Below the pieces are notes generated by a model. The model was not told the DNA's origin and searched no databases. It was given only the letters and a program-made list of their open reading frames with translations. Positions 3,351-41,604 of a DNA stretch of 64,000 bases are shown piece by piece (position 1 is the stretch's first letter; the number at the start of each line of letters is the position of its first letter). The stretch is taken from NCBI GenBank assembly GCA_903827975.1, contig CAIKKG010000024.1, positions 523-64,522 of the forward strand, read 5' to 3'. The position numbers and the translations under genes were made by a program. This DNA is from an uncultured bacterium (lineage in GTDB: Bacteria > Patescibacteriota > Minisyncoccia > UBA6257 > GWB1-50-10).

Positions 3351-5792
3351 TTATAGTACGAAATTTATTAGTCTATCTTCCACGAAAATAGTTTTCTTAA
3401 TCTCCTTACCATTAAGTATGCCACTAACAGTACTATTTTTCATTGCCTCTACTTTTGCATCGGCCTCTGAAATTCCAACTGGTACAGTAATTCTGGACTT
3501 AAATTTGCCATTAATCTGAACGACTAATTCAAATGTGTCTTCAACTGTCTTACTATGTTCAAAGGTTGGCCATTTTGAAATATGGATTGATTTTTTATTT
3601 CCTAGCTCGTACCAAAGTTCTTCTGTGATGTGTGGCGCAAATGGCGCAATTAGTTTAATCAAAACTTCAAACTCTTTTCGACTTAACCCTTTCTCTTCAA
3701 CTTTATTTAATAGAACCATTAGAGAACTTATCGCTGTATTGTACTGAAGGTTCTCAATATCACTTGTCACCTTCTTTATTGTCTGGTGCAAAATTCTCTC
3801 CCTGCTTTCATCTTTTGCTACTTTTTCTTTTTCAATAACACGTTGTCCCAATCTCCAAACACGATCTAAAAATCTCGTTATTCCAAGCATTCCTGCATCG
3901 CGAAAATCTCCACCCTGCTCAAATGGAGCTAGGAACATTAGATATGTGCGAAGAGTGTCCGCTCCGAATCTCTTTATATACTCGTCTGGATTAACTACAT
4001 TCCCTTTTGACTTAGACATCTTTGCTCCATCCTTAATCAAAAGTCCGTGAGCTCTGAATTTAGTGAATGGCTCCTCAAAATTAATTATTCCTATATCACT
4101 CAAAACCATTGTTATAAATCTTGAGTAAAGAAGATGAAGAACTGAGTGCTCAGCTCCACCAATATACTCATTTACTGGTAGCCATTTCTTTGTAATCGCG
4201 TCATCCCACGCAACTTTTTTGTTAGTCGCACTTGGGTATCGTAAAAAGTACCATGCTGAATCAAGGAATGTGTCTGACACGTCTGTCTCTCTGCGTGCTA
4301 CGCTTCCACAACGAGGACATTTTGCCGAGTGAAATGATTTAACCGAGGCGAGAGGTGACTCTCCGGTACCCTCTGGGCGAAATTCTTTTACATTAGGAAG
4401 TATTATAGGCAACTCTTTCTCAGGAACTGCAAACCAGCCGGGCATTCCCTTCTGCTCTCCAATACCACCGAATGCGCACTCCTCGCAAAATATCATTGGA
4501 ATTGGTGGGCTCCAGTAACGCTGACGAGAGACCAACCAGTCTCGAATACGAAACTGTATTTTTCTCTCACCCCCAACCAACTTAACAATCTCCCACATAG
4601 CGTCAGCACTTTTCATTCCGTTAAATTTTTCGGAATTTACAAGCGTTCCCTCTCCTGCGAATGACTCTGTTTGTGCCTCACCTGGTTTTAGACCGCCCCC
4701 ATCAATTACTACCTTAATTGGTATTTTAAACTTCTTGGCGAATGCAAAATCTCGCTCGTCGTGTGCGGGCACAGCCATAATTGCTCCAGTTCCGTATCCT
4801 GATAATACATAATCACTTATATATATTGGGATTCCATCTCCACTTGCGGGGTTAATTGCGAGAACTCCCTTAAGCTCAACACCGGTTTTTTCCTTGCTAC
4901 CCATTGCTCGCTCCTCTTCTGTTTTCTTAACTGTTAAATCAATATATTTTTTTACCTCTCCGAAATTTAGAATTTTCGTTTTCAGTTTCTGCACTAGTTC
5001 GTGCTCAGGAGCTAAGACAACATAAGTTGCTCCATATAACGTATCTGGTCGTGTTGTAAATACTTTTATTACCTGTGGGAAATCTGAAACTGCAAAATTA
5101 ATTTCTGCGCCTTCTGATTTTCCAATCCAGTTTTTTTGCGCGATCTTAACACGCTCTGACCAATCTAGATTCTCTAAATTATGTAAAAGACGATCAGCAT
5201 AATCAGTGATTCTGAAGAACCACTGCTCCAAATCTTTTTTTGGTGCAACGCTGCTACATCGCTCACACTTACTTGCTATTACCTGCTCATCAGCAAGAAC
5301 TGTTTTACAACTTGGGCACCAGTTTACCGATTGCTTCTTTCGATATGCGAGTCCGCGCTTCCACATCTGAACAAATAACCACTGAGTCCACTTATAATAT
5401 TCCGCGTCGTATGTCTCAACATGTTCATTCCACGCAAACCCATTTCCAAGTATCTCAAGTTGCTTATAAAATCTTTTTTCGGAAATTTTAGATTGTTTAA
5501 TAGGGTGCGTTCCTATTTTCATCGCATAATTTTCTGAGTGGATTCCAAATCCATCAAGTCCGATTGGTTCAAAAACATCATAACCGTTCATTCTCTTGAA
5601 TCGCCCGTAGATATCCGAACCAGTGAACGCATACATATTGCCAACATGTAAGCCTTCCGCCGAAGGATATGGGAACATCATGAGATTATAAAAAGGATTT
5701 TTTGCCTTTTTTAAATCTGGTTCATATATTCCATCCTTTAACCATTTCTTCTGCCACCTACTCTCGATTTTTGAAAACTCATACTTCTTCAT
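3351..5792 (-). CDS. leuS: Leucine--tRNA ligase
   Basis: The 813-aa protein has a HIGH-type motif (HVGNMYAFTGSDIYGRF), a KMSKS motif (KMSKSKGN) and a CP1 editing region. Confidence 0.95.
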   Translation of the reverse strand: MKKYEFSKIESRWQKKWLKDGIYEPDLKKAKNPFYNLMMFPYPSAEGLHVGNMYAFTGSDIYGRFKRMNGYDVFEPIGLDGFGIHSENYAMKIGTHPIKQSKISEKRFYKQLEILGNGFAWNEHVETYDAEYYKWTQWLFVQMWKRGLAYRKKQSVNWCPSCKTVLADEQVIASKCERCSSVAPKKDLEQWFFRITDYADRLLHNLENLDWSERVKIAQKNWIGKSEGAEINFAVSDFPQVIKVFTTRPDTLYGATYVVLAPEHELVQKLKTKILNFGEVKKYIDLTVKKTEEERAMGSKEKTGVELKGVLAINPASGDGIPIYISDYVLSGYGTGAIMAVPAHDERDFAFAKKFKIPIKVVIDGGGLKPGEAQTESFAGEGTLVNSEKFNGMKSADAMWEIVKLVGGERKIQFRIRDWLVSRQRYWSPPIPMIFCEECAFGGIGEQKGMPGWFAVPEKELPIILPNVKEFRPEGTGESPLASVKSFHSAKCPRCGSVARRETDVSDTFLDSAWYFLRYPSATNKKVAWDDAITKKWLPVNEYIGGAEHSVLHLLYSRFITMVLSDIGIINFEEPFTKFRAHGLLIKDGAKMSKSKGNVVNPDEYIKRFGADTLRTYLMFLAPFEQGGDFRDAGMLGITRFLDRVWRLGQRVIEKEKVAKDESRERILHQTIKKVTSDIENLQYNTAISSLMVLLNKVEEKGLSRKEFEVLIKLIAPFAPHITEELWYELGNKKSIHISKWPTFEHSKTVEDTFELVVQINGKFKSRITVPVGISEADAKVEAMKNSTVSGILNGKEIKKTIFVEDRLINFVL

Positions 5793-27526: not shown

Positions 27527-28051
27527 TTATTTCGGCACCACAATCTGAAGTCTTCTCGTCGGACCGCCGACCAGTCTCCATGCGTGGTGTGTAGCGGTTG
27601 AAAATATTTGTGGGACCAGCCTGTCCATCTCTGGGAAGGATTGGAATTCAATGACAACAACCTCGTCATCAACCTCAGTCAAGAACATCGTGGCTCGGCA
27701 GTCCTTCATTATTTCGGAATGCCCGTACACGCGAATAAAGCGGGCAATCTGTGATTGCTGAAGACAGAGACTTTTAAGACTTCCCCTGCCAAGCTCTTCG
27801 AAAATCTTCGAAACGCATGATTTGTTCTTAAGAACCTGCCAGACCTCGAGCTGGACCTCTCCCGCCTCGGCACCCTTTAATGAACTGTGCCATTCATGGG
27901 CAAGCGGATCTATGTGCATAAAAAGTTCCTCGTTCATTAAGCATTCTTTCCGCGCATCGTCTGGTGAGATGCTTTCAATTAAAATTTCCTTTTCCGGAAA
28001 GATGTGCTTCAGAATTCTAACAGGAAAAATCTTTCGGATAGTTCGTCTCAT
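27527..28051 (-). CDS. Hypothetical protein encoded by a GC-anomalous, stand-alone transcription unit
   Basis: The 174-aa ORF has about 50% GC against about 40% background. It has its own TTGACA-type -35, an AAGGGAG RBS and terminators on both sides. Confidence 0.55.
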   Translation of the reverse strand: MRRTIRKIFPVRILKHIFPEKEILIESISPDDARKECLMNEELFMHIDPLAHEWHSSLKGAEAGEVQLEVWQVLKNKSCVSKIFEELGRGSLKSLCLQQSQIARFIRVYGHSEIMKDCRATMFLTEVDDEVVVIEFQSFPEMDRLVPQIFSTATHHAWRLVGGPTRRLQIVVPK

Positions 28052-28160
28052 ACTGTCTCCCTTGTTTTTAATGAGCAGACCTATTCTGTCATAAAATCAA
28101 CTTTTGTCAACCCTTTGCGTTTCTGCTTTGGAATATTCTTTATAAAAAATTTTGCGTTTA

Positions 28161-28196
28161 CAAAAAAACTCTCCCGTATTTGGGAGAGTTTTTTAT
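28161..28196 (-). terminator. Terminator downstream of the exonuclease and small-peptide unit
   Basis: CTCTCCCGTATTTGGGAGAG flanked by A/T runs. Confidence 0.65.
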
Positions 28197-28208
28197 TTAA
28201 TTATTTTC

Positions 28209-28319
28209 TTACTTTGGCCCTAAGAACAACAAGGGAATATAAACCATGATGAGACCGAGAATTAGAAGCGAGACCATGATGATTGTAAAAACTCTGCGTT
28301 TTTTTGGATTCATTTTCAT
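28209..28319 (-). CDS. Small membrane peptide of 36 aa (MKMNPKKRRVFTIIMVSLLILGLIMVYIPLLFLGPK)
   Basis: This ORF is not in the supplied ORF track because it is under 60 aa. It has a basic N-terminus followed by one TM helix, and lies 17 nt downstream of the exonuclease gene on the same strand, before the terminator. Confidence 0.35.
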   Translation of the reverse strand: MKMNPKKRRVFTIIMVSLLILGLIMVYIPLLFLGPK

Positions 28320-28336
28320 AATGTAATTATACTATT

Positions 28337-28909
28337 TTAGAACAATCCTTCTGGTGGGGGAGTCACTTCTTTATAATCTTCAAAATTAACTTTTTTCATA
28401 TCAGTAACATTGCGCTCAGGAATATACAAAAACTTTTTTTCCAATATTTGATCATAGATGCGTTTTGTAACTCTTACGTCCTGAGTACAATAATCTTTTA
28501 ATCTTTGCATCTCTCCGTTTCTATAAAATTCTATTGCTTGTAACCCGTGTCCGCTTTTTCCCTCTCCTAGATTTGCTTCTGCTAATATTCCAAGACCAAC
28601 TCGACGGCCGAATTTTTTTTCAATTTCTTCAAGAATATCGTAGTGTGCAATCTTTGAAATATTTGATTTAAAATATTTTTCTAATACTGGCACATCAAAT
28701 CTTTTACTTGCAAATCCGATTAGTAGGTAAGCGTTTTTAAAATATGCCTCCATCTTGTCAGTCTCGTGTTCGTCAAAGCAATAATAAGCATCCTCATTAT
28801 ATGAGTAGATGCCCACGACCGACATCTCAAGCTTTGTTATATTTTCCTGACCGCCGACATCTGCAAACGTATTTTTTGTTTCGATGTCGAATACTATTTT
28901 GTCTTGCAT
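28337..28909 (-). CDS. DEDD-family 3'-5' exonuclease with an RNase H-like fold
   Basis: The 190-aa protein has an Exo I-like FDIETKN motif and an Exo III-like YCTQDV (YxxxD) motif. Confidence 0.55.
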   Translation of the reverse strand: MQDKIVFDIETKNTFADVGGQENITKLEMSVVGIYSYNEDAYYCFDEHETDKMEAYFKNAYLLIGFASKRFDVPVLEKYFKSNISKIAHYDILEEIEKKFGRRVGLGILAEANLGEGKSGHGLQAIEFYRNGEMQRLKDYCTQDVRVTKRIYDQILEKKFLYIPERNVTDMKKVNFEDYKEVTPPPEGLF

Positions 28910-29354: not shown

Positions 29355-31199
29355 CTATCCTTCAATCGTCGCAATCTTAAATCCGAATTTATTTATTAAA
29401 GAATAGAACTCATCCTGTTCAAGTGTCTCCTTTTCTATAAGAGCTTCTGCTATTGCATCAAGTGCTTTGCGGTGCTTTGTCACAATTGCTCTTGCTGTAG
29501 CGTGTGCTTTCTGTATGTGCTCGTTTATTTCAGAATCTATTATTGAGCCTACTGATTCAGAATAATTTTTTTCTGTTCCTATATCGCGTCCAAGGAAAAC
29601 CATTCCGCCAGAATTACCAAATGCACGTGGCCCGAGTTTTTCACTCATTCCGTATCTAGTAACCAATCGTTCTGCAACATCAGTAGCATTTTGAATATCG
29701 CTTGATGAGCCAGTTGTCACATCTTTAAATACTGCCTGCTCTGCGGCAAATCCTCCAAATGAAACCGCCATGTCTGCAACAAACTGTGCTTTTGTGCGTA
29801 GACTGCTTTCTTCTAGTGGAAGTTTAAGTGTATATCCGCCAGCCATTCCGCGACTCACAATAGAAACTTTATGTACTGGATCTGAGTCTTTCATTGCGGC
29901 CGCAACAAGTGCGTGACCAGCCTCATGATAAGCGGTAATCTCTTTTTGCTTCGGTGTGATTACACGACTTCTTCGTGCTGGACCGAGTAATACCTTTTCA
30001 ATTGAGTTTAGGAAATCCTCCTGCATAACTGTTTTGCGATTACTCCTTGCTGCGAGTATCGCCGCCTCATTCACAAGATTAGAAAGATCCGCTCCTGCAA
30101 ATCCTGGTGTTCGTGTTGCAATCATTTTGAAATCTATTTTTTCATCAAGCGGTTTTCCCTTCGCGTGAATTTTTAAAATTTCCTCCCTATCTTTTACATC
30201 TGGCATATCAAGCACAACTCTTCTATCGAAACGTCCTGGGCGCAACAATGCAGAATCAAGAACATCTGGCCTGTTTGTTGCCGCAATTACAATCACGCTT
30301 GTGTCGCGCTCAAATCCATCCATCTCTACAAGTATCTGATTGAGTGTTTGTTCGCGCTCATCGTGTCCGCCACCCATTCCAGTTCCACGCTCACGACCAA
30401 CAGCATCTATCTCATCAATAAATATAATTGCTGGTGCCATCTTTTTTGCAATCTCAAATAAATCACGAACGCGAGAAGCTCCAACACCAACAAACATTTC
30501 AACAAATTCTGATGCTGAAATATGGAAGAAGGGGACTCCAGCCTCACCAGCCACTGCACGAGCCAACATTGTTTTTCCTGTACCTGGTGAACCCATTAGT
30601 AAGACTCCGCGCGGAATTTTTGCGCCGATCTGTGTAAACTTTTTTGAATTTTTTAAGAATTCCACAATCTCTAATAATTCTTCTTTTGCCTCCTTCAATC
30701 CGGCAACATCCTTAAATGTGGTTTTGTCTTTTGCTGGAGAAAATAGACGAGCGTTTATTTTTCCAAATGAGAACGCCTGACCCGCACCATTTTTTGCCTG
30801 TCTAAAAATCCACCAGAAAATACCAATCATAAGAAGTGCGGGGATAAGTACTGGGATAAGAATACTCATCCAGTATTTTGAACCACTCTCATCTTGAATT
30901 TTAAAATTGACCTTCTGCAATGCATCAGCTGACACTCCATAATTTTTAAATGTTTCTGAAATTCCTAACTCGTTTTCTTTACGAGAAACTGCTTTTTCAG
31001 AACTTTTTAAAGTCACGTTTATTTCGTTACCACTAACTGTAATATCCTTAACCTCGCCAGCAATTATTTTATTAGCTAAAACATCAATGCTTAATTCTGT
31101 TGGTGCTTTTGTATCAAAACTAAGAAGTGCGGTAAACAAAAAGGCTGTTACAGTAAGAGAGAGAACTACCCATATAATATTTTTTCCTAGTGATTTCAT
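29355..31199 (-). CDS. ftsH: ATP-dependent zinc metalloprotease FtsH
   Basis: The 614-aa protein has two N-terminal TM helices, an AAA module (GPPGTGKT; DEIDA), the HEAGHALV zinc site and a second region of homology. Confidence 0.95.
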
Positions 31200-31465
31200 G
31201 CGTTTATAGTTTTTATTTTTAGTTATTTTTTAATTCTGACTTTTCTTTTTCTATTATTACAATATTAGATTACACCACCAATTCTTCTGATTTGTGATGT
31301 CTATCCAAAACCCAAATCGAAATAATATTTTTTACTCCCTTACTATAATTGAATGAACATAATTATGGAATAGGGAATGTGTGTTTTTTGTTTTGTTTGA
31401 ATTTAATTAAGCTGTTCGGTATGGTTTGGTCTGATTTATATAGGGTATATATAGGGGAATACGCG

Positions 31466-31494
31466 TTGACAAATTGGTATATTGGTGATATAAT
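31466..31494 (+). promoter_or_regulatory. Consensus sigma-70 promoter, TTGACA-17 bp-TATAAT, driving the GC-rich two-gene cassette
   Basis: A perfect -35 TTGACA (31466-31471), a 17-nt spacer and a perfect -10 TATAAT (31489-31494), followed by an AAGGGGG RBS and ATG at 31524. Confidence 0.6.
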
Positions 31495-31523
31495 ATCTTT
31501 AAGATCTTTAACAAGGGGGTTAT

Positions 31524-31904
31524 ATGTTGCGCTTCTATAGCCTCATTGAGGCTACGGACTGGAGTAGTATAATAGCTGCTCTAGCAACTGGCGTCGGAAT
31601 ACTCTGGGTCTTTGCTCAGTTTTCCGCGCACAACGTCCATGTCGGCGAGATTGTCGATATTGGAGTCTTCGTCTCCTTCTGTGGTTCCGCTACCTGCGGT
31701 TACACAAAGGAGGAGAAATCTGAGCTTTCGGCCATGCTCAGTTTCTCAATCCCACTCTTCGTGCTTCTACTTATTGCGCGCTGGAATGGGACACTGTTAG
31801 GTGAGTTTGGGGCGAGGATTGCCTACTCGGCGATTATTGCAACAACACTTACCTCAATCTTTGGGGCTAAATTTGGCTCAGTACTATACAGAATACTTAA
31901 CTAG
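31524..31904 (+). CDS. Hypothetical small polytopic membrane protein encoded by a GC-rich acquired cassette
   Basis: The 126-aa protein has 3-4 predicted TM helices and about 55-58% GC codon usage, unlike its neighbours. Confidence 0.55.
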   Translation: MLRFYSLIEATDWSSIIAALATGVGILWVFAQFSAHNVHVGEIVDIGVFVSFCGSATCGYTKEEKSELSAMLSFSIPLFVLLLIARWNGTLLGEFGARIAYSAIIATTLTSIFGAKFGSVLYRILN

Positions 31905-31925
31905 CGGCACGATTGCCGCATTTTC

Positions 31926-32288
31926 TTGGAGCAGGAAATGAATAGCAAGGAAATGAATAGCAAGAAGTTGATCTGCGTGCTCGGCTTACCGATGGCGATG
32001 TTCGCCTTCCTCTTGACCGAGGCTCTCACTGGCTCCGTGATGCTTGGGTTCGCAGGCTTCACGCTCGCGATGATCCTCATCTATGGACTCATCAGCTCGA
32101 CCATCCCGGTTGTGCTGCTTACTATCTCTGCTGCTGACCCCTTTATGTGGGCCGGCGTCGGAATCGGGACCTCGCTGGCCCTCGTGACAGTCTTACTGTC
32201 TCGGAGCTGGGAACCGCCCTTCCGGACAGTCCTTAGGGACTGGGTTCGGACTCACGGTCAACGAGTACCACTGCGCGACAAGATGTAG
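31926..32288 (+). CDS. Hypothetical small polytopic membrane protein, the second gene of the GC-rich cassette
   Basis: The 120-aa protein has 3 TM helices. There is a 15-nt tandem duplication at its start (MNSKE-MNSKK), and GC is about 58%. Confidence 0.55.
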   Translation: MEQEMNSKEMNSKKLICVLGLPMAMFAFLLTEALTGSVMLGFAGFTLAMILIYGLISSTIPVVLLTISAADPFMWAGVGIGTSLALVTVLLSRSWEPPFRTVLRDWVRTHGQRVPLRDKM

Positions 32289-32300
32289 TGTATATAAACA

Positions 32301-32336
32301 AAACCCCCGCCTTTCGGCGGGGGAGATTTTTTTATT
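32301..32336. terminator. Bidirectional terminator shared by the GC-rich cassette and rpsA
   Basis: AAAACCCCCGCCTTTCGGCGGGGGAGATTTTTTT. Confidence 0.75.
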
Positions 32337-33420
32337 TCTTAAGTTTAAGAGTAATCTTTCGTTCCTGTGGTTTTACTGCGTCCACAACGAATGAGTATTC
32401 CTTTCCGATTGTGAGATGTTTTCTCATCTCCTCGGCTCCTCCAAACTCTGTTACGTGAACATATCCCTGATATGTCTCATCCAAGTTTACAATTGCGCCG
32501 AACGGATTGAACATATATACCTTACCCTTAACCTCCTGGTTCTCGCCATACTTATTGGCTACAACCATCCAAGGGTCTGGCTTTAATGCTTTAAGAGAAA
32601 GTGAGATTTTTCCTTCCTTAATATCAACAATCTTTGCTTTTACAACATCATCTACCTTCACAACATCCTTCGGATTCTCAACAATTCTGTAATCCAACTC
32701 TGATACGTGAATAAGTCCCTCAACTGCTGGATTGTCTACGAATTTTACGAATACTCCGAAATCTGCGACACCCGAGACCACGCCATCAACCGTCTGTCCT
32801 ACTTCGTAGTTTTTAGCTAGTTCGCGTGATGAGATTTCAGTTGCTTCCTTTTCAGAAAGAATTAATTTTCCTGCGCGTGGGTTTGCATCAATAATCTTTA
32901 CAGAGATTTCCTCTCCAACAAGCTTTTGTAATGCGCTTCCAATCTCAGTTCTCTCGGCTGTTATTGCTTTAGGATAGTGATCCGCGGCAAGCTGTGAAAC
33001 AGGAAGAAAGGCTGGAATACCCTTAACGTTTGCGATAAGTCCTCCCTTGTTAAATCCTGTGATTTTAATCGTAAATGCCTCATCCTTTCCGCGAAGTTCA
33101 TCAACCTCGCCCCAGGCTTTTTGTTTGCCAGCCTCAGAAAGTGAGAGCTCAACAAATCCATCATCATTATCAACCTCGATAACTTTAGCGTGAATAGGGC
33201 TGCCTACCTCAAGACTCTTTACCAGTTCGCGTGCGTTCTGCAACTCTCCGCGATAAACTACGCCAGTTCCGTGACGTCCAAGGTTCACAAGAATTGCGCG
33301 TGAGCTCTTATCCAAAACAGATCCCTCGACGATATCTCCAACTTTTACAGAGGAGAAAATCTGCGGACTTGTTTTTGCAAGCTGTGTAAGTATAAGCATG
33401 CCGTTCTTTACGATATTCAT
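32332..33420 (-). CDS. rpsA: 30S ribosomal protein S1, short form with four S1 domains
   Basis: The 362-aa protein contains four S1 (OB) repeats with conserved G..V.G.V......G.FV patterns. Confidence 0.8.
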   Translation of the reverse strand: MNIVKNGMLILTQLAKTSPQIFSSVKVGDIVEGSVLDKSSRAILVNLGRHGTGVVYRGELQNARELVKSLEVGSPIHAKVIEVDNDDGFVELSLSEAGKQKAWGEVDELRGKDEAFTIKITGFNKGGLIANVKGIPAFLPVSQLAADHYPKAITAERTEIGSALQKLVGEEISVKIIDANPRAGKLILSEKEATEISSRELAKNYEVGQTVDGVVSGVADFGVFVKFVDNPAVEGLIHVSELDYRIVENPKDVVKVDDVVKAKIVDIKEGKISLSLKALKPDPWMVVANKYGENQEVKGKVYMFNPFGAIVNLDETYQGYVHVTEFGGAEEMRKHLTIGKEYSFVVDAVKPQERKITLKLKK

Positions 33421-38462: not shown

Positions 38463-38876
38463 ATGAAACAACTAGTTGCTCTAACTGTTTTGTTACTGGT
38501 CGCCTTTGCAATTTTTATGCCCACACACAACGCGCAGGCTTTAAGTATCTGGGCTGGTGCAAAGTGTGGTGGCGCGGTGATTGGTCTGAATGATGGGCCC
38601 ACTGGCGCGTGTAATCTTTGTGATGCAATGATCGTGCTTCGAAACATAATAAACTTCGGGTTTACGCTCGCCATCTCGATAAGCACTGGTATGATTGCGT
38701 GGGGTGCTGTTCGTATGATGACTGCTGGAGGTAGTGAGAGTAACGTTAGTGAGGCAAAGAAAATAATATTTAGTGCCATAACTGGTGTAGCAATTGCACT
38801 TGGTTCGTGGATTATAGTAAATACATTATTCTCCGTGTTTACCGGTTCGTGGAACTGGAATCATTTCACGTGTTAA
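38463..38876 (+). CDS. VirB2/TrbC-like pilin-module protein, paralog 1
   Basis: A signal peptide (…THNAQA) is followed by Cys residues and a hydrophobic-charged loop-hydrophobic hairpin (LAISISTGMIAWGAVRMMTAGGSESNVSEAKKIIFSAITGVAIALGSWIIV). The hairpin is shared with 38893, 39598 and 61648. Confidence 0.6.
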   Translation: MKQLVALTVLLLVAFAIFMPTHNAQALSIWAGAKCGGAVIGLNDGPTGACNLCDAMIVLRNIINFGFTLAISISTGMIAWGAVRMMTAGGSESNVSEAKKIIFSAITGVAIALGSWIIVNTLFSVFTGSWNWNHFTC

Positions 38877-38892
38877 TATAAATAATAAATAA

Positions 38893-39579
38893 ATGAAAAA
38901 ATCTATTTTAAGAAAAATATTGTTTGTTGCACTAATCGTTATCGCGATATCCTTTCCATCGGTTTCTGTGGTCCGCGCACAATGCGCCCCAAACTCTAGT
39001 CAGTGCCCAGCAGAACTGTGTGGTGGAACATCAGGCTTTGTAGATAGCGATGGTGTGTGCTACACATCAGCAAGTTGTACCAACTCAAATATGTGTACTG
39101 GCGTTGTAACTGGTGGTGTATGTAATCCATCAAATGATTGTGCGTCCTCTTGCGGTGGAAGTCAGGGATATGCGGATAGTGAGGGATCATGCTACACAAG
39201 CTCGGCGTGTAATAACTATACTAGGTGTTCTGGTGGAACTAATACTGGTGGTGGCAATGCTGGTAGTGGTAATAATACTGGCGGGTTAGGTATTGGAGGT
39301 GGTGGCAATGCTGGATCAGACATGCAACTACAGAATCCTCTTGGGGTGAGTAGTATAAATGGTCTCATCAACAGAATAATTGATATTCTTATTATTTTAG
39401 GCATTCCTATTGCTAGTGGAATGATTATATGGGCGGCGTTCCTCTTCATGACCTCTGGTGGCGAGCCAGATAAGCTAACAACCGCAAGACACGCAATATT
39501 GTGGACTGTTATTGGATTTGTTATACTTTTAATTGCTAAGGGTATTGCTAGTATTATCAGGTCCGTTATGGGTATATAA
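38893..39579 (+). CDS. Pilin-module protein, paralog 2, with an N-terminal duplicated Cys-rich domain and a Gly-rich linker
   Basis: After the signal peptide come two copies of a roughly 33-aa Cys motif (C..G.SG[FY].DS[DE]G.CYTS..C.N...C.G), then GGNAGSGNNTGG and the conserved C-terminal 2-TM hairpin (LFMTSGGEPDKLTTARHAILWTVIGFVILLIAKG). Confidence 0.6.
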   Translation: MKKSILRKILFVALIVIAISFPSVSVVRAQCAPNSSQCPAELCGGTSGFVDSDGVCYTSASCTNSNMCTGVVTGGVCNPSNDCASSCGGSQGYADSEGSCYTSSACNNYTRCSGGTNTGGGNAGSGNNTGGLGIGGGGNAGSDMQLQNPLGVSSINGLINRIIDILIILGIPIASGMIIWAAFLFMTSGGEPDKLTTARHAILWTVIGFVILLIAKGIASIIRSVMGI

Positions 39580-39597
39580 CTAAAAAAATATTCTGAA

Positions 39598-39999
39598 ATG
39601 AAAGGTCGGATGTTTGTTTATATAATAAATCAATTTATGAAAAATCTAATAAAATATTCAGTACTTGGTCTTTCAATGTTTCCAGTATTAGCATCTGCTG
39701 CTAATGCAATAACTGGTGGTCCTACAAGTGCTGGTGATGTTTGGACTATAATCAATAATCTTTTGGGTTGGATGGTTGGTCTTTTCTTTTTGGCTGCGAC
39801 TGTTTTTATTCTTTTGGCCGGTTTCAAATATATGACTGCGGCTGGAGATGAGTCAAAGGTTACAGAAGCAAAAAACTATCTTACATATGCTGTAATAGGT
39901 ATTGCTGTTGGGCTTTTAGCATTTGCTATCCCAAATATTCTTGCCTCATTCCTAAAAGTTAATGTTCCGACTGGGGGTCCAGCTGGACAGGCCTTCTAA
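39598..39999 (+). CDS. Pilin-module protein, paralog 3. The ATG at 39637 is an alternative start.
   Basis: It has a signal peptide and the conserved hairpin (AGFKYMTAAGDESKVTEAKNYLTYAVIGIAVGLLAFAIP). Confidence 0.6.
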   Translation: MKGRMFVYIINQFMKNLIKYSVLGLSMFPVLASAANAITGGPTSAGDVWTIINNLLGWMVGLFFLAATVFILLAGFKYMTAAGDESKVTEAKNYLTYAVIGIAVGLLAFAIPNILASFLKVNVPTGGPAGQAF

Positions 40000-40085: not shown

Positions 40086-40167
40086 GCTCCCGTGGCGGAA
40101 CTGGCATACGCGCATGGCTTAGGACCATGTCCCGCAAGGGTTGGAGGTTCAAATCCTCTCGGGAGCA
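40086..40167 (+). tRNA. tRNA-Leu (anticodon TAG)
   Basis: The sequence shows acceptor GCTCCCG/CGGGAGC, a D-arm GGCGGAACTGGCATACGCGC like E. coli tRNA-Leu, anticodon stem CATGG/CCATG around loop CTTAGGA, a long variable arm and T-loop GTTCAAATC. Confidence 0.8.
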
Positions 40168-40173
40168 CAAAGA

Positions 40174-40198
40174 TAAAAACACCAATCTGGTGTTTTTA
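40174..40198 (+). terminator. Terminator after tRNA-Leu
   Basis: AAAAACACCAATCTGGTGTTTTTAG. Confidence 0.65.
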
Positions 40199-40369
40199 GT
40201 TTGTTTATTTAAACTATTTAGATTGGATTGTAAATTATTGACAAGCCTTTAAATTAGTGTTTTGCTCTAATTAATTCCTTGCCGCATGGCATAGGTGGTT
40301 ACTGAAAGGTAGCAACGGGGTCTTTCCTTTCCCTATCAAAAGGATGTTCTTTCCAATAGAAAGGGTCGT

Positions 40370-40663
40370 ATGACCAATACACCCATTCCCGCAATTCGCA
40401 TCTCCATCTCTAGCGGCCCCTCCCGCGAGGAGCTGTTCGATGCTCTTCGCCTGCGCCATGAGCACCGGCCCATCTTGGTCAAGGTCCACCCCTTGGACCA
40501 GAAGCCGATGGATATTAAGTTCATCGTGAACGGAATCGCCGTCGAGGATGGAAGCGGACAGAACTGGCTCATTGAGTTTTTGAACGTGCAGACCCACCAG
40601 ATCGTTCGCGGGTATTACAACTCGCGTACGCGCGCGGGTTGGCTCGACTTCCCTCGAGTGTAG
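40370..40663 (+). CDS. Hypothetical 97-aa protein encoded by a GC-rich (about 57%) stand-alone gene
   Basis: It has a TTGACA -35 at 40238, an AAGGG RBS 5 nt before ATG and its own terminator. It is a GC island between tRNA-Leu and the tyrosine recombinase. Confidence 0.5.
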   Translation: MTNTPIPAIRISISSGPSREELFDALRLRHEHRPILVKVHPLDQKPMDIKFIVNGIAVEDGSGQNWLIEFLNVQTHQIVRGYYNSRTRAGWLDFPRV

Positions 40664-40676
40664 TCATCACATCAAT

Positions 40677-40708
40677 CGCCGCCCGATATATTCGGGCGGT
40701 TTTTTTAT
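40677..40708 (+). terminator. Rho-independent terminator
   Basis: CGCCGCCCGATATATTCGGGCGGTTTTTTT. Confidence 0.7.
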
Positions 40709-40713
40709 ATAAA

Positions 40714-41604
40714 TTATTCCTCCTTCCTTCTAACTCCGTGAAATGCTTCGTGTACCTCATGAAGCTCTTTATTTGTAAGATGAGTATAGACCTGAGTTGT
40801 AGAAATATTTGCGTGACCCAGTAATTCCTGCACCGAGCGAAGATCTGCTCCATTAATTAATAGATCTGTTGCAAATGAGTGGCGTAACTCATGAGGATGA
40901 ACTCGCTTCGCAATCCCAGCCTTCCTCGCATATGTATCAACTAAACGCTGAACAGTTCTTGGAATTATTCTACCTAAAATCTTACCTGTTTTTGCAATAC
41001 TAACAAAAAGTGCCTCCTCAGCATCTGTTCGTTTTTCTAAATACTCTTTAATTGCTTTTTTTGAACTTGTAGAAAGAAACACAACACGAATCTTCTCTCC
41101 CTTTCCTCGAACAGAAAGCTCACCACGAGTTAGATCTATATAGCGTGGAAGATTGCATATCTCTGAGACTCGGAGCCCCGTTGAAAACAGAACCTCGAGT
41201 ACGGCCCTATCGCGAAGTGCACGAAGCGAGTCTCCTTCTGGTGCCGCAAGCAATCGTTCGAGCTCTTTATACTCCAAAACCTCTATATCTCTCCTTGCAA
41301 CCTTCGGTAGTTCTATTGTTTCTGGCGCTAGAGACTTTATTCCACGGCGCACAAGGTACTTTAAAAAATTGCGAAGTGAGATTACGTAGTAATTTTGCGT
41401 TATTTTTTTAATATTCTTGCGGGCTAGCGTAATGCGGAATGATCGCACAACCGAGTCTGTTATCTCGCCTGGAGTCTCAACACCAGTCTCCTTTAAAAAT
41501 ACCGTTAGGTAGTGCGAATAATTTTCACGCGTTTTAAGAGAACGGTTCTTTTCAATCTCAAGATAGTCCAAATACTCCTGAAAAAGCTTCTTAATCTCGC
41601 TCAT
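40714..41604 (-). CDS. xerD: Tyrosine site-specific recombinase of the XerC/XerD type
   Basis: The 296-aa protein has an N-terminal core-binding domain (LDYLEIEKNRSLKTRENY) and a C-terminal catalytic region HPHELRHSFATDLLINGADLRSVQELLGHANISTTQVYTHL, with the R...HxxR...Y residues. Confidence 0.8.
   Translation of the reverse strand: MSEIKKLFQEYLDYLEIEKNRSLKTRENYSHYLTVFLKETGVETPGEITDSVVRSFRITLARKNIKKITQNYYVISLRNFLKYLVRRGIKSLAPETIELPKVARRDIEVLEYKELERLLAAPEGDSLRALRDRAVLEVLFSTGLRVSEICNLPRYIDLTRGELSVRGKGEKIRVVFLSTSSKKAIKEYLEKRTDAEEALFVSIAKTGKILGRIIPRTVQRLVDTYARKAGIAKRVHPHELRHSFATDLLINGADLRSVQELLGHANISTTQVYTHLTNKELHEVHEAFHGVRRKEE

Follow-up and report, generated by a model that had tools for sequence, protein, structure and literature searches.

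A predicted accessory operon for two orphan small membrane proteins in the ftsH-rpsA slot of a Candidatus Jorgensenbacteria subclade

We analysed a 64,000-nucleotide stretch of bacterial DNA, hereafter the window, to which all coordinates refer unless a contig is named. The interval under study, positions 31466-32288, lies between ftsH and rpsA and carries a cassette of two short open reading frames (ORFs), ORF1 and ORF2, whose products are predicted to be membrane proteins. The window is 99.8% identical to a metagenome-assembled genome of Candidatus Jorgensenbacteria, in the candidate phyla radiation (CPR), or Patescibacteria (GCA_026396755.1). A preliminary description of this DNA had likened the cassette to a toxin/immunity pair, a holin module or a defence effector acquired horizontally. 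Our analysis points elsewhere. With a probability that we place at about 60%, the cassette represents a taxonomically restricted accessory operon of one Jorgensenbacteria subclade, which would have been inherited in a fixed chromosomal slot and would owe its unusual base composition to processes within the clade. We compared the window with four strain-level contigs (L001-L004) and with contigs from relatives (L005, L006, L007-L013, L016 and L023-L026).

Genes and signals of the cassette

The features of the cassette and its borders are listed below, with the strand and the evidence on which each call was made; dN/dS is the ratio of nonsynonymous to synonymous substitution rates.

31330..31349, minus strand: promoter element of ftsH, ATTATAGTAAGGGAGTAAAA, with its -10 hexamer TATAGT at 31342-31347; it marks the cassette boundary and is not part of the cassette
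31466..31494, plus strand: sigma-70 promoter, TTGACA-17-TATAAT with a TG extended -10 (score 12/12)
31513..31519, plus strand: Shine-Dalgarno sequence AAGGGGG of ORF1, 4 nucleotides before the ATG (sequence reading)
31524..31904, plus strand: ORF1, 126 amino acids (ORF reading, orthologues, dN/dS)
31904..31919, plus strand: intercistronic stem-loop GCGGCA-CGAT-TGCCGC, followed here by ATTTTCTT (pairing, covariation)
31933..31962, plus strand: perfect tandem duplication of 15 nucleotides, two copies of AGGAAATGAATAGCA (repeat search)
31938..32288, plus strand: ORF2, 116 amino acids from the ATG (ORF reading, orthologues, dN/dS)
32304..32333, both strands: bidirectional intrinsic terminator, with CCCCCGCC-TTTC-GGCGGGGG between an A-run and a T-run (called on both strands)

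The neighbourhood of the interval comprises ftsH, genes for tRNA-Val and tRNA-Ile, the S1-domain gene rpsA, a lactamase_B gene and gyrA. The rpsA gene converges on the cassette, and both transcripts end at the one bidirectional terminator. The ftsH element on the other side is part of a block resembling (T/C)TATAGTAA(G/A)TGAGTAA that is present in nearly all ftsH upstream regions in an alignment of 13 genomes, and in relatives with an empty site it follows the rpsA terminator directly.

Nowhere else in the 64 kb does a TTGACA-17-TATAAT site come within one mismatch of the consensus. The equivalent of the promoter, TTGACA-N13-GTGATAYAAT, occupies the orthologous position in each of L001-L006 and L024-L026. 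Spacer included, the window promoter is most similar to that of L006, the closest relative of the window by housekeeping genes. Transcription would start near 31501. A palindrome at this predicted start, AAGATCTT, was considered as an operator and rejected, being broken in strains L002, L003 and L004. With a conserved consensus promoter and no conserved operator, high constitutive expression is apparently tolerated, an argument against a holin or free toxin.

A second element of the predicted transcript is the GC-rich hairpin with a 4-nucleotide loop that lies between the position of ORF1 and the Shine-Dalgarno sequence of ORF2 in every species with an orthologous operon. Its stem varies in sequence and keeps its pairing: 91.7% of the alignment cells are paired, versus 17-56% in slid controls, and compensatory changes occur at 3 of the 8 pairs. 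In strain L001 the hairpin (L001 2792-2807) is the exact reverse complement of that in the window (GCGGCACGATTGCCGC versus GCGGCAATCGTGCCGC), a flip of the palindrome that retains the structure. Among the orthologous operons, only that of the window has a T-rich run after the hairpin, and for this reason we read the element not as a general terminator but as a candidate mRNA stabiliser, processing site or attenuator that might set the ratio of ORF1 to ORF2.

The hairpin at 32304-32323, also GC-rich, scores as a terminator on both strands. Since relatives with an empty site have an equivalent rpsA terminator, it is native to rpsA and reused by the cassette. A scan of 31100-32450 against Rfam gave no family at the gathering threshold and only terminator-like matches below it. 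The preliminary description had correctly recognized the perfect sigma-70 promoter, the AAGGGGG ribosome-binding site and the terminator shared with rpsA; it had overlooked the intercistronic stem-loop.

By hydropathy, the ORF1 protein has four transmembrane helices joined by short loops, and both of its termini would be cytoplasmic. ORF2 encodes a hydrophobic block (residues 9-88; 80 residues, three or four helices) and a basic tail with seven K/R and three D/E, in which a conserved EPPF motif accompanies a basic C-terminal helix that is amphipathic in the AlphaFold2 (AF2) model. The AF2 models of the two proteins are of moderate or low confidence, with predicted local distance difference test (pLDDT) values of 69.5 and 60.1. 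Conserved residues of ORF2 include the packing glycines G16, G37, G50 and G77, an I46/Y49 motif, D67 as the one invariant membrane Asp, an E/D after the first transmembrane helix, and a PP...W.R...G.R pattern in the tail; these features suggest that the helices form an oligomeric bundle and that a cytoplasmic helix serves for interactions. In ORF1 the conserved polar or acidic residues in or near the membrane are D12, G41-E/D42 and K116. The two proteins do not align with each other at E <= 100 and are not paralogues.

These readings bear out the 126 residues given earlier for ORF1 and the three to four transmembrane helices given for each protein. The 120 residues given for ORF2 are counted from the TTG at 31926; from the ATG at 31938, which has GGAG 6 nucleotides upstream, there are 116 residues, as in the NCBI gene call. 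The 15-nucleotide tandem duplication reported at the start of ORF2 is present and perfect. It repeats the start region, adds MNSKE to the N terminus, and leaves the window species with two in-frame ATGs five codons apart, the second of which is poorly spaced from the Shine-Dalgarno sequence. All strain-level contigs that reach the duplication carry it, and the orthologues in L005, L006, L023, L024 and L026 have a single start without it. The doubled start is a species-specific slip duplication.

Distribution and inheritance of the operon

A word-seeded search of 5.77 billion protein clusters matched only the genes' own clusters. Exhaustive HMMER scanning of 1.84 billion representatives turned up three credible relatives of ORF2, and a profile search brought the total to nine clusters; relatives were retrieved by way of the neighbouring rpsA gene and by exact-protein look-ups. 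All matches with readable context lie in the same ftsH-rpsA slot and come from one Jorgensenbacteria subclade. The carriers are the window species, the clade of L005 and L024-L026, L006, and L023, with the cassette on the same relative strand throughout. A search for homologues scattered across phyla, as the earlier proposal of a mobile origin would predict, therefore ended in a single clade and a single locus, and orthologues at this position in related genomes are what that proposal had named as evidence against itself.

The surrounding gene order, gyrA-p131-lactamase_B-rpsA-[slot]-ftsH-rnh, is kept across relatives. Over the last 75 residues of rpsA, carriers are 77-100% identical to one another and 68-76% identical to the sister clade L007-L009. 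In that clade the slot is empty: the gap between rpsA and ftsH measures 89-188 bp and holds the rpsA terminator and the ftsH -10 element alone. The operon is accessory for this reason, and the empty slot means either that the subclade gained the operon at its base or that the sister clade lost it, with no sign of a recent event. Unrelated orphan genes occupy the slot in L010-L013 and L016. Examples are L010 7194-7889, L013 7156-8028 and L016 7100-7402 (100-290 amino acids, no Pfam family), and what the slot contains differs from genome to genome across Jorgensenbacteria and Paceibacterota.

Within the carrier subclade, the operons share the slot, the promoter, the order ORF1-hairpin-ORF2, the terminator and homologous proteins. 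ORF2 is the only gene found in every version whose whole gap was readable. Its window copy is 46% identical to the orthologue P0003 of L023 (E 2e-18) and 30% identical to that of L005 (E 1.5e-11), a further orthologue is present in L006, and the nearest known ORF2 proteins are only 46-53% identical to it. ORF1 has an orthologue in L023 (E 1e-10); the similarity of the window and L023 copies to the L005 group is weak by BLAST and becomes clear, over the full length, with hhalign (probability 94.7%, E 5.6e-8). Frame, length and transmembrane pattern are kept across orthologues at 25-50% identity.

Relatives also carry a third small, glycine-rich membrane-protein gene of 128-163 amino acids, gene A, upstream of the conserved promoter. 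Its copies are as follows.

L005: 8114-8554, minus strand
L006: 8168-8659, minus strand
L024: 1178-1564, plus strand
L026: 1663-2049, plus strand
L023: 1-270, plus strand (probable)

Gene A is followed by a terminator-like hairpin of its own in L005, L006, L024 and L026. The L023 protein at this position has no significant similarity to the other copies and is probably gene A. Scans of three copies yielded no family. The window species does not have gene A at the locus, and the 64-kb window contains no copy elsewhere, nor a second ORF1 or ORF2. L006 has promoter, hairpin and ORF2 without ORF1. In L006 7674-7966 (minus strand), about 290 nucleotides without an ORF1 homologue follow the promoter and precede the hairpin and ORF2; the sole ORF there, of 81 amino acids, is non-membrane and starts too near the -10 to be translated from that transcript. 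No degraded ORF1 was found in L006, and ORF1 appears to have been replaced or lost.

In the L005 clade, dN/dS is 0.07-0.21 for gene A, ORF1 and ORF2 (0.09-0.18 for ORF1 and 0.14-0.21 for ORF2), so all three are real, constrained genes. They nevertheless evolve quickly, at roughly ten times the pace of the neighbouring genes: in this clade, dN exceeds that of ftsH and rpsA by a factor of 5-23. The same ratio predicts the 26-33% identity observed between the window and L005 or L006. Since a constant rate ratio predicts the divergence, the divergence of the proteins requires no horizontal transfer.

The locus is also a hot spot of variation among strains that are 99.9% identical outside it. In three comparisons, 13 of 29, 13 of 23 and 22 of 26 differences fall within 981 bp, a clustering with p = 6e-8 to 1e-14. 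Strain indels inside the ORFs are all in frame, and four gametes occur at sites 31462 and 31868. In-frame indels at codons 2-4 of ORF1 (window 31527-31530) give the alleles ML-R, MRGR and MGLR, all three of which are found in a set of five otherwise near-identical contigs, and further changes lie between the -10 and the Shine-Dalgarno sequence (31500-31502). The variation at the start of ORF1 may serve to adjust the initiation of translation; alternatively, it may lie at a junction left by recombination, at the point where GC content jumps.

Base composition and competing explanations

The cassette had been described as about 56% GC, 15-18 points above its surroundings. These figures roughly suit ORF2, which has about 56.5-56.7% GC and exceeds ftsH and rpsA by 14-16 points, but not ORF1 (48.3%, only 6-8 points above) or the interval (50.7%, in a window of 40.3%). 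That the composition is atypical was supported by both windowed GC and codon analysis. Among 823-bp windows the interval deviates most in GC: 0.28% of them reach its value, and every one above 50% GC overlaps it. GC content at third codon positions (GC3) is 0.74 in ORF2 and 0.53 in ORF1, or 5.9 and 2.7 standard deviations above the mean of the 55 other ORFs (mean 0.347, standard deviation 0.067), and other membrane-protein genes in the window have GC3 of 0.22-0.41. The order of the codon positions (GC3 > GC1 > GC2) is that expected for coding sequence. The suggestion that many native genes might share this composition thus did not hold, and the anomaly still needs an explanation.

In ORF2 of the window, G- and C-ending codons are both raised, including the host-rare codons CGG, CTG and CCG. 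Translational selection was rejected as the cause on these grounds, and is further ruled out by rpsA, rpsO and other membrane-protein genes, which do not have the pattern. The excess is not confined to the window, as the following values of GC3 for ORF2 and its flanking genes indicate.

Window: 0.74 in ORF2, 0.28-0.37 in flanking genes
L005: 0.77 in ORF2, 0.53-0.59 in flanking genes
L006: 0.59 in ORF2, 0.47-0.50 in flanking genes
L024: 0.82 in ORF2, 0.58 in flanking genes
L026: 0.78 in ORF2, 0.43-0.52 in flanking genes
L023: 0.84 in ORF2, 0.71 in the flanking rpsA fragment

ORF2 therefore exceeds its flanks in every lineage examined, and ORF1 is consistently below ORF2 (window, L005 clade and L023). 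Genome GC within the group of relatives ranges from 31 to 57%.

Two explanations of the excess may be entertained. A gene- or locus-specific force may act on it, for example the recombination-associated GC bias that has been proposed for bacteria (Lassalle et al. 2015, PMC4450053), which fits the variation hot spot. Alternatively, cassette alleles may be exchanged with GC-richer relatives, and the window allele may be a recent arrival. With either explanation, the source is inside the clade. We attribute the excess to within-clade processes because it is present in every lineage and coincides with the hot spot of variation and recombination.

Horizontal acquisition from outside is not supported by the searches that we made for a family or a carrier. 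Pfam, PHROGs, PADLOC and NCBIfam gave nothing above threshold for both proteins and their orthologues, in agreement with the earlier statement that no family was detectable, and the BLAST and hidden Markov model (HMM) checks that had been proposed leave both proteins as orphans. In PADLOC-DB v2, no family matched either protein at E <= 10, and sequence profile searches of the PDB likewise gave no match at E <= 10. One candidate, DUF3087 (PF11286), matched residues 43-95 of ORF2 with E 0.0034 and 17.3 bits, below the gathering score of 23.4; it was absent from scans of three ORF2 orthologues (P0003, P0007 and L006) and was dismissed as a chance hydrophobic match. Foldseek comparison of the ORF2 model with the PDB and with viral predicted structures (BFVD) found nothing below E = 0.88, and BFVD entries annotated as holins appeared only at E > 2, with TM-scores of 0.23-0.30.

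No homologue was found by tblastn of phages and plasmids. Three 30-residue matches to viral contigs were rejected as chance hydrophobic stretches in a short frame between stops. The IMG/VR contig that was the source of a dismissed match (L028) has no ORF of at least 50 amino acids on either strand in the 700 bp from 4700 to 5400; this region may be non-coding or may use an alternative genetic code. Scanning viral contigs with ORF1 and metagenome contigs with a pattern also gave nothing. There is no integrase or transposase beside the cassette, the flanking repeats are weak imperfect pairs of 10-20 nucleotides at chance level, and no endolysin, spanin, toxin, export or mobility gene lies near it. 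Nothing marks the operon as a mobile element, and the acquired toxin/immunity, holin or defence interpretation of the preliminary description finds no link to any family, structure, phage, plasmid or mobility function.

We accordingly consider it very improbable that the cassette was acquired horizontally as a toxin/immunity pair, a holin-antiholin module or a defence effector that depolarises membranes, although some features recall one. Phage holins of the lambda S105/S107 type have a dual-start motif, and ORF2 shares with them a small size, two close in-frame Met codons in the window species, and several transmembrane helices with a basic cytoplasmic C-terminal tail (the seven K/R), this last likeness being generic and not diagnostic; atypical composition and an empty slot in the sister clade would also suit an acquired module. 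Unlike these holins, however, ORF2 matches no holin family or fold and belongs to a chromosomal, syntenic operon with the same context, free of endolysin and phage genes, in all orthologous loci. Its double start arises from a duplication that the orthologues do not have. The partners are moreover dispensable (L006 does without ORF1 and the window without gene A), so that co-occurrence is not obligate, and the conserved promoter without an operator is a further point against this explanation.

A small hetero-oligomeric transporter or channel for an ion or small solute, built from two unrelated four-helix subunits of about 115-125 residues, is somewhat less implausible, yet still improbable. 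The adjacent genes, the polytopic products of about 120 residues with very short loops, the conserved polar or acidic residues (D67 in ORF2; D12, G41-E/D42 and K116 in ORF1), the small-residue packing motifs and the seemingly constitutive expression are all consistent with it. Paired small multidrug resistance (SMR; PF00893) and Fluc/CrcB (PF02537) proteins resemble the cassette in having adjacent genes, about 110-125 residues, about four transmembrane helices and minimal loops. Their pairs, however, are paralogues, whereas ORF1 and ORF2 are unrelated and ORF1 is missing from L006; neither these two families nor any other transporter matched at E <= 10, and a rate 5-20 times that of housekeeping genes would be unusual with a defined substrate site. 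That the ORFs are not genes at all, but frames left open by chance in a GC-rich segment that is non-coding or encodes RNA, is extremely improbable. GC-rich DNA does have fewer stops, no family was found, and the AF2 models are of low or moderate confidence, but the low dN/dS, the retention of frame, length and transmembrane pattern among distant orthologues, the in-frame indels, the Shine-Dalgarno sequence before each start and the absence of an Rfam family at the gathering threshold all contradict it.

The most serious alternative overlaps with the inherited accessory operon that we favour, and differs from it solely in the origin of the GC excess. It proposes a recent allele replacement within the clade, in which an ORF1-ORF2 block from an unsampled, GC-richer relative similar to L023 ousted an older version through homologous recombination, having entered between the conserved promoter/ftsH flank and the terminator/rpsA flank. 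We consider this a real contender, if clearly the less probable account. Several observations weigh against our preferred account, and most of them fit replacement. The host-rare codons in ORF2 of the window are such as freshly imported DNA would have. The closest ORF2 and ORF1 are those of the GC-rich L023 (46% and 28% identity; GC3 0.71 in its rpsA fragment), not those of L006. Third positions of ORF2 in the L005 clade changed 24 times from G or C to A or T and 7 times in the opposite direction, by a parsimony count that is biased at skewed composition and based on small numbers. The same polarised count gives per-site rates similar to those of the flanks, and suggests slow amelioration rather than active maintenance of GC3. 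Moreover, the strain data all derive from metagenome assemblies, which may be chimeric, and the AF2 models have only the moderate or low confidence given above.

Replacement is further favoured by the contrast of 0.74 and 0.53 with 0.35 +/- 0.07 in the other ORFs, by the breadth of genome GC among relatives, which means that GC-rich donors exist in the group, by the four-gamete signal, and by the concentration of strain differences from the -10 to codon 4 of ORF1, at the GC jump, which could be a junction. Against it, no donor was identified at the 46-53% identity of the nearest ORF2 proteins, the divergence of the proteins fits vertical descent at a constant rate ratio, and the promoter follows the species tree. 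The higher GC3 of ORF2 than of ORF1 in the window, the L005 clade and L023 also argues for a gene-specific cause rather than for the age of a transfer.

Proposed role and significance

Under the accessory-operon model, transcription from the extended -10 sigma-70 promoter would produce an mRNA of about 830 nucleotides that contains ORF1, the stem-loop and ORF2, with its end at the bidirectional terminator of rpsA. ORF2 would be the invariant core, with ORF1 and the upstream gene A as optional partners. Both products, small and predicted to be almost entirely buried in the membrane, change fast in spite of purifying selection. The GC excess at silent sites would arise from allele exchange with GC-richer relatives within the clade, from recombination-associated GC bias, or from both, without import from a foreign phylum.

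As to function, we tentatively suggest an abundant, constitutive and non-lytic helical oligomer of the inner membrane that might protect the membrane or confer immunity, or might keep ions or small solutes in balance; this is a conjecture to which we give rather low odds. A narrower version is more doubtful still: an abundant, hypervariable inner-membrane family, hitherto undescribed, that would provide a lineage of ultra-small CPR bacteria with immunity or exclusion at the membrane against attack by a phage, host or competitor, with diversity generated by allele exchange and GC bias as its footprint. The Cai/Cei-like immunity proteins that guard against pore-forming colicins and bacteriocins reside in the inner membrane, have about 110-180 amino acids and three to four transmembrane helices, are expressed constitutively from their own promoters and evolve fast, and orphan immunity genes are known. 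The cassette proteins are likewise small, fast-evolving and predicted to have three to four helices, a likeness that would be a functional analogy only; unlike the colicin system, the locus offers no similarity in sequence or structure and no toxin gene, export gene or plasmid context.

Three other regions of the window deserve mention. A second GC-rich islet at 40180-40700 contains an ORF of 97 amino acids without a Pfam family (40370-40663, plus strand) and is flanked by tRNA-Leu (40086-40168) and a tyrosine-recombinase gene (40714-41604, minus strand); strain single-nucleotide polymorphisms cluster at 40264-40579. This islet may be a remnant of an integrated element. At 27527-28051 (minus strand) lies an orphan ORF of 174 amino acids with GC3 of 0.51, which is 39% identical to its L005 counterpart, compared with 86-91% for its neighbours. 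The adjoining RNase H-like gene and its upstream region (28150-28577) account for 13 of 18 strain differences over 7.4 kb. Finally, 38463-39999 contains three tandem genes annotated as PF18895 (T4SS_pilin) in the L002 gene table, the third of which is called at 120 amino acids in L002 and at 129 in L003.

CPR bacteria hold many short hypothetical membrane proteins, and this locus is a well-delimited example. Like other orphan small membrane-protein genes of the CPR, those of the cassette are short, hydrophobic, fast-evolving, annotated as "hypothetical protein" and confined to a narrow clade; the neighbours p174 and p131 are also orphans, as are the slot genes of L010-L016. Unlike such genes in general, the cassette has a perfect extended -10 promoter, a covarying hairpin, a reused bidirectional terminator, a persistent GC3 excess and a strain-level hot spot. 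The genes form a family that protein-family libraries do not describe, with no hint of a new kind of system, and a literature search pairing Jorgensenbacteria with "membrane protein" returned no paper.

The locus separates atypical composition from foreign mobile origin, since a GC3 anomaly here accompanies strict synteny and restriction to one clade. If the narrower version of the function, with its hypervariable family, were true, the GC excess would be a rare case of recombination-associated GC bias (PMC4450053) at a single locus in a reduced genome. If the hot spot and the GC3 excess reflect recurrent allele exchange, the operon would be a marker of gene flow among uncultured Jorgensenbacteria and a candidate interface of biological conflict; otherwise, it would merely be a fast-evolving orphan operon. 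Transcriptomic and population-genomic studies could reasonably be directed at it, given its conserved expression architecture, its GC3 excess and its hot spot of microdiversity.

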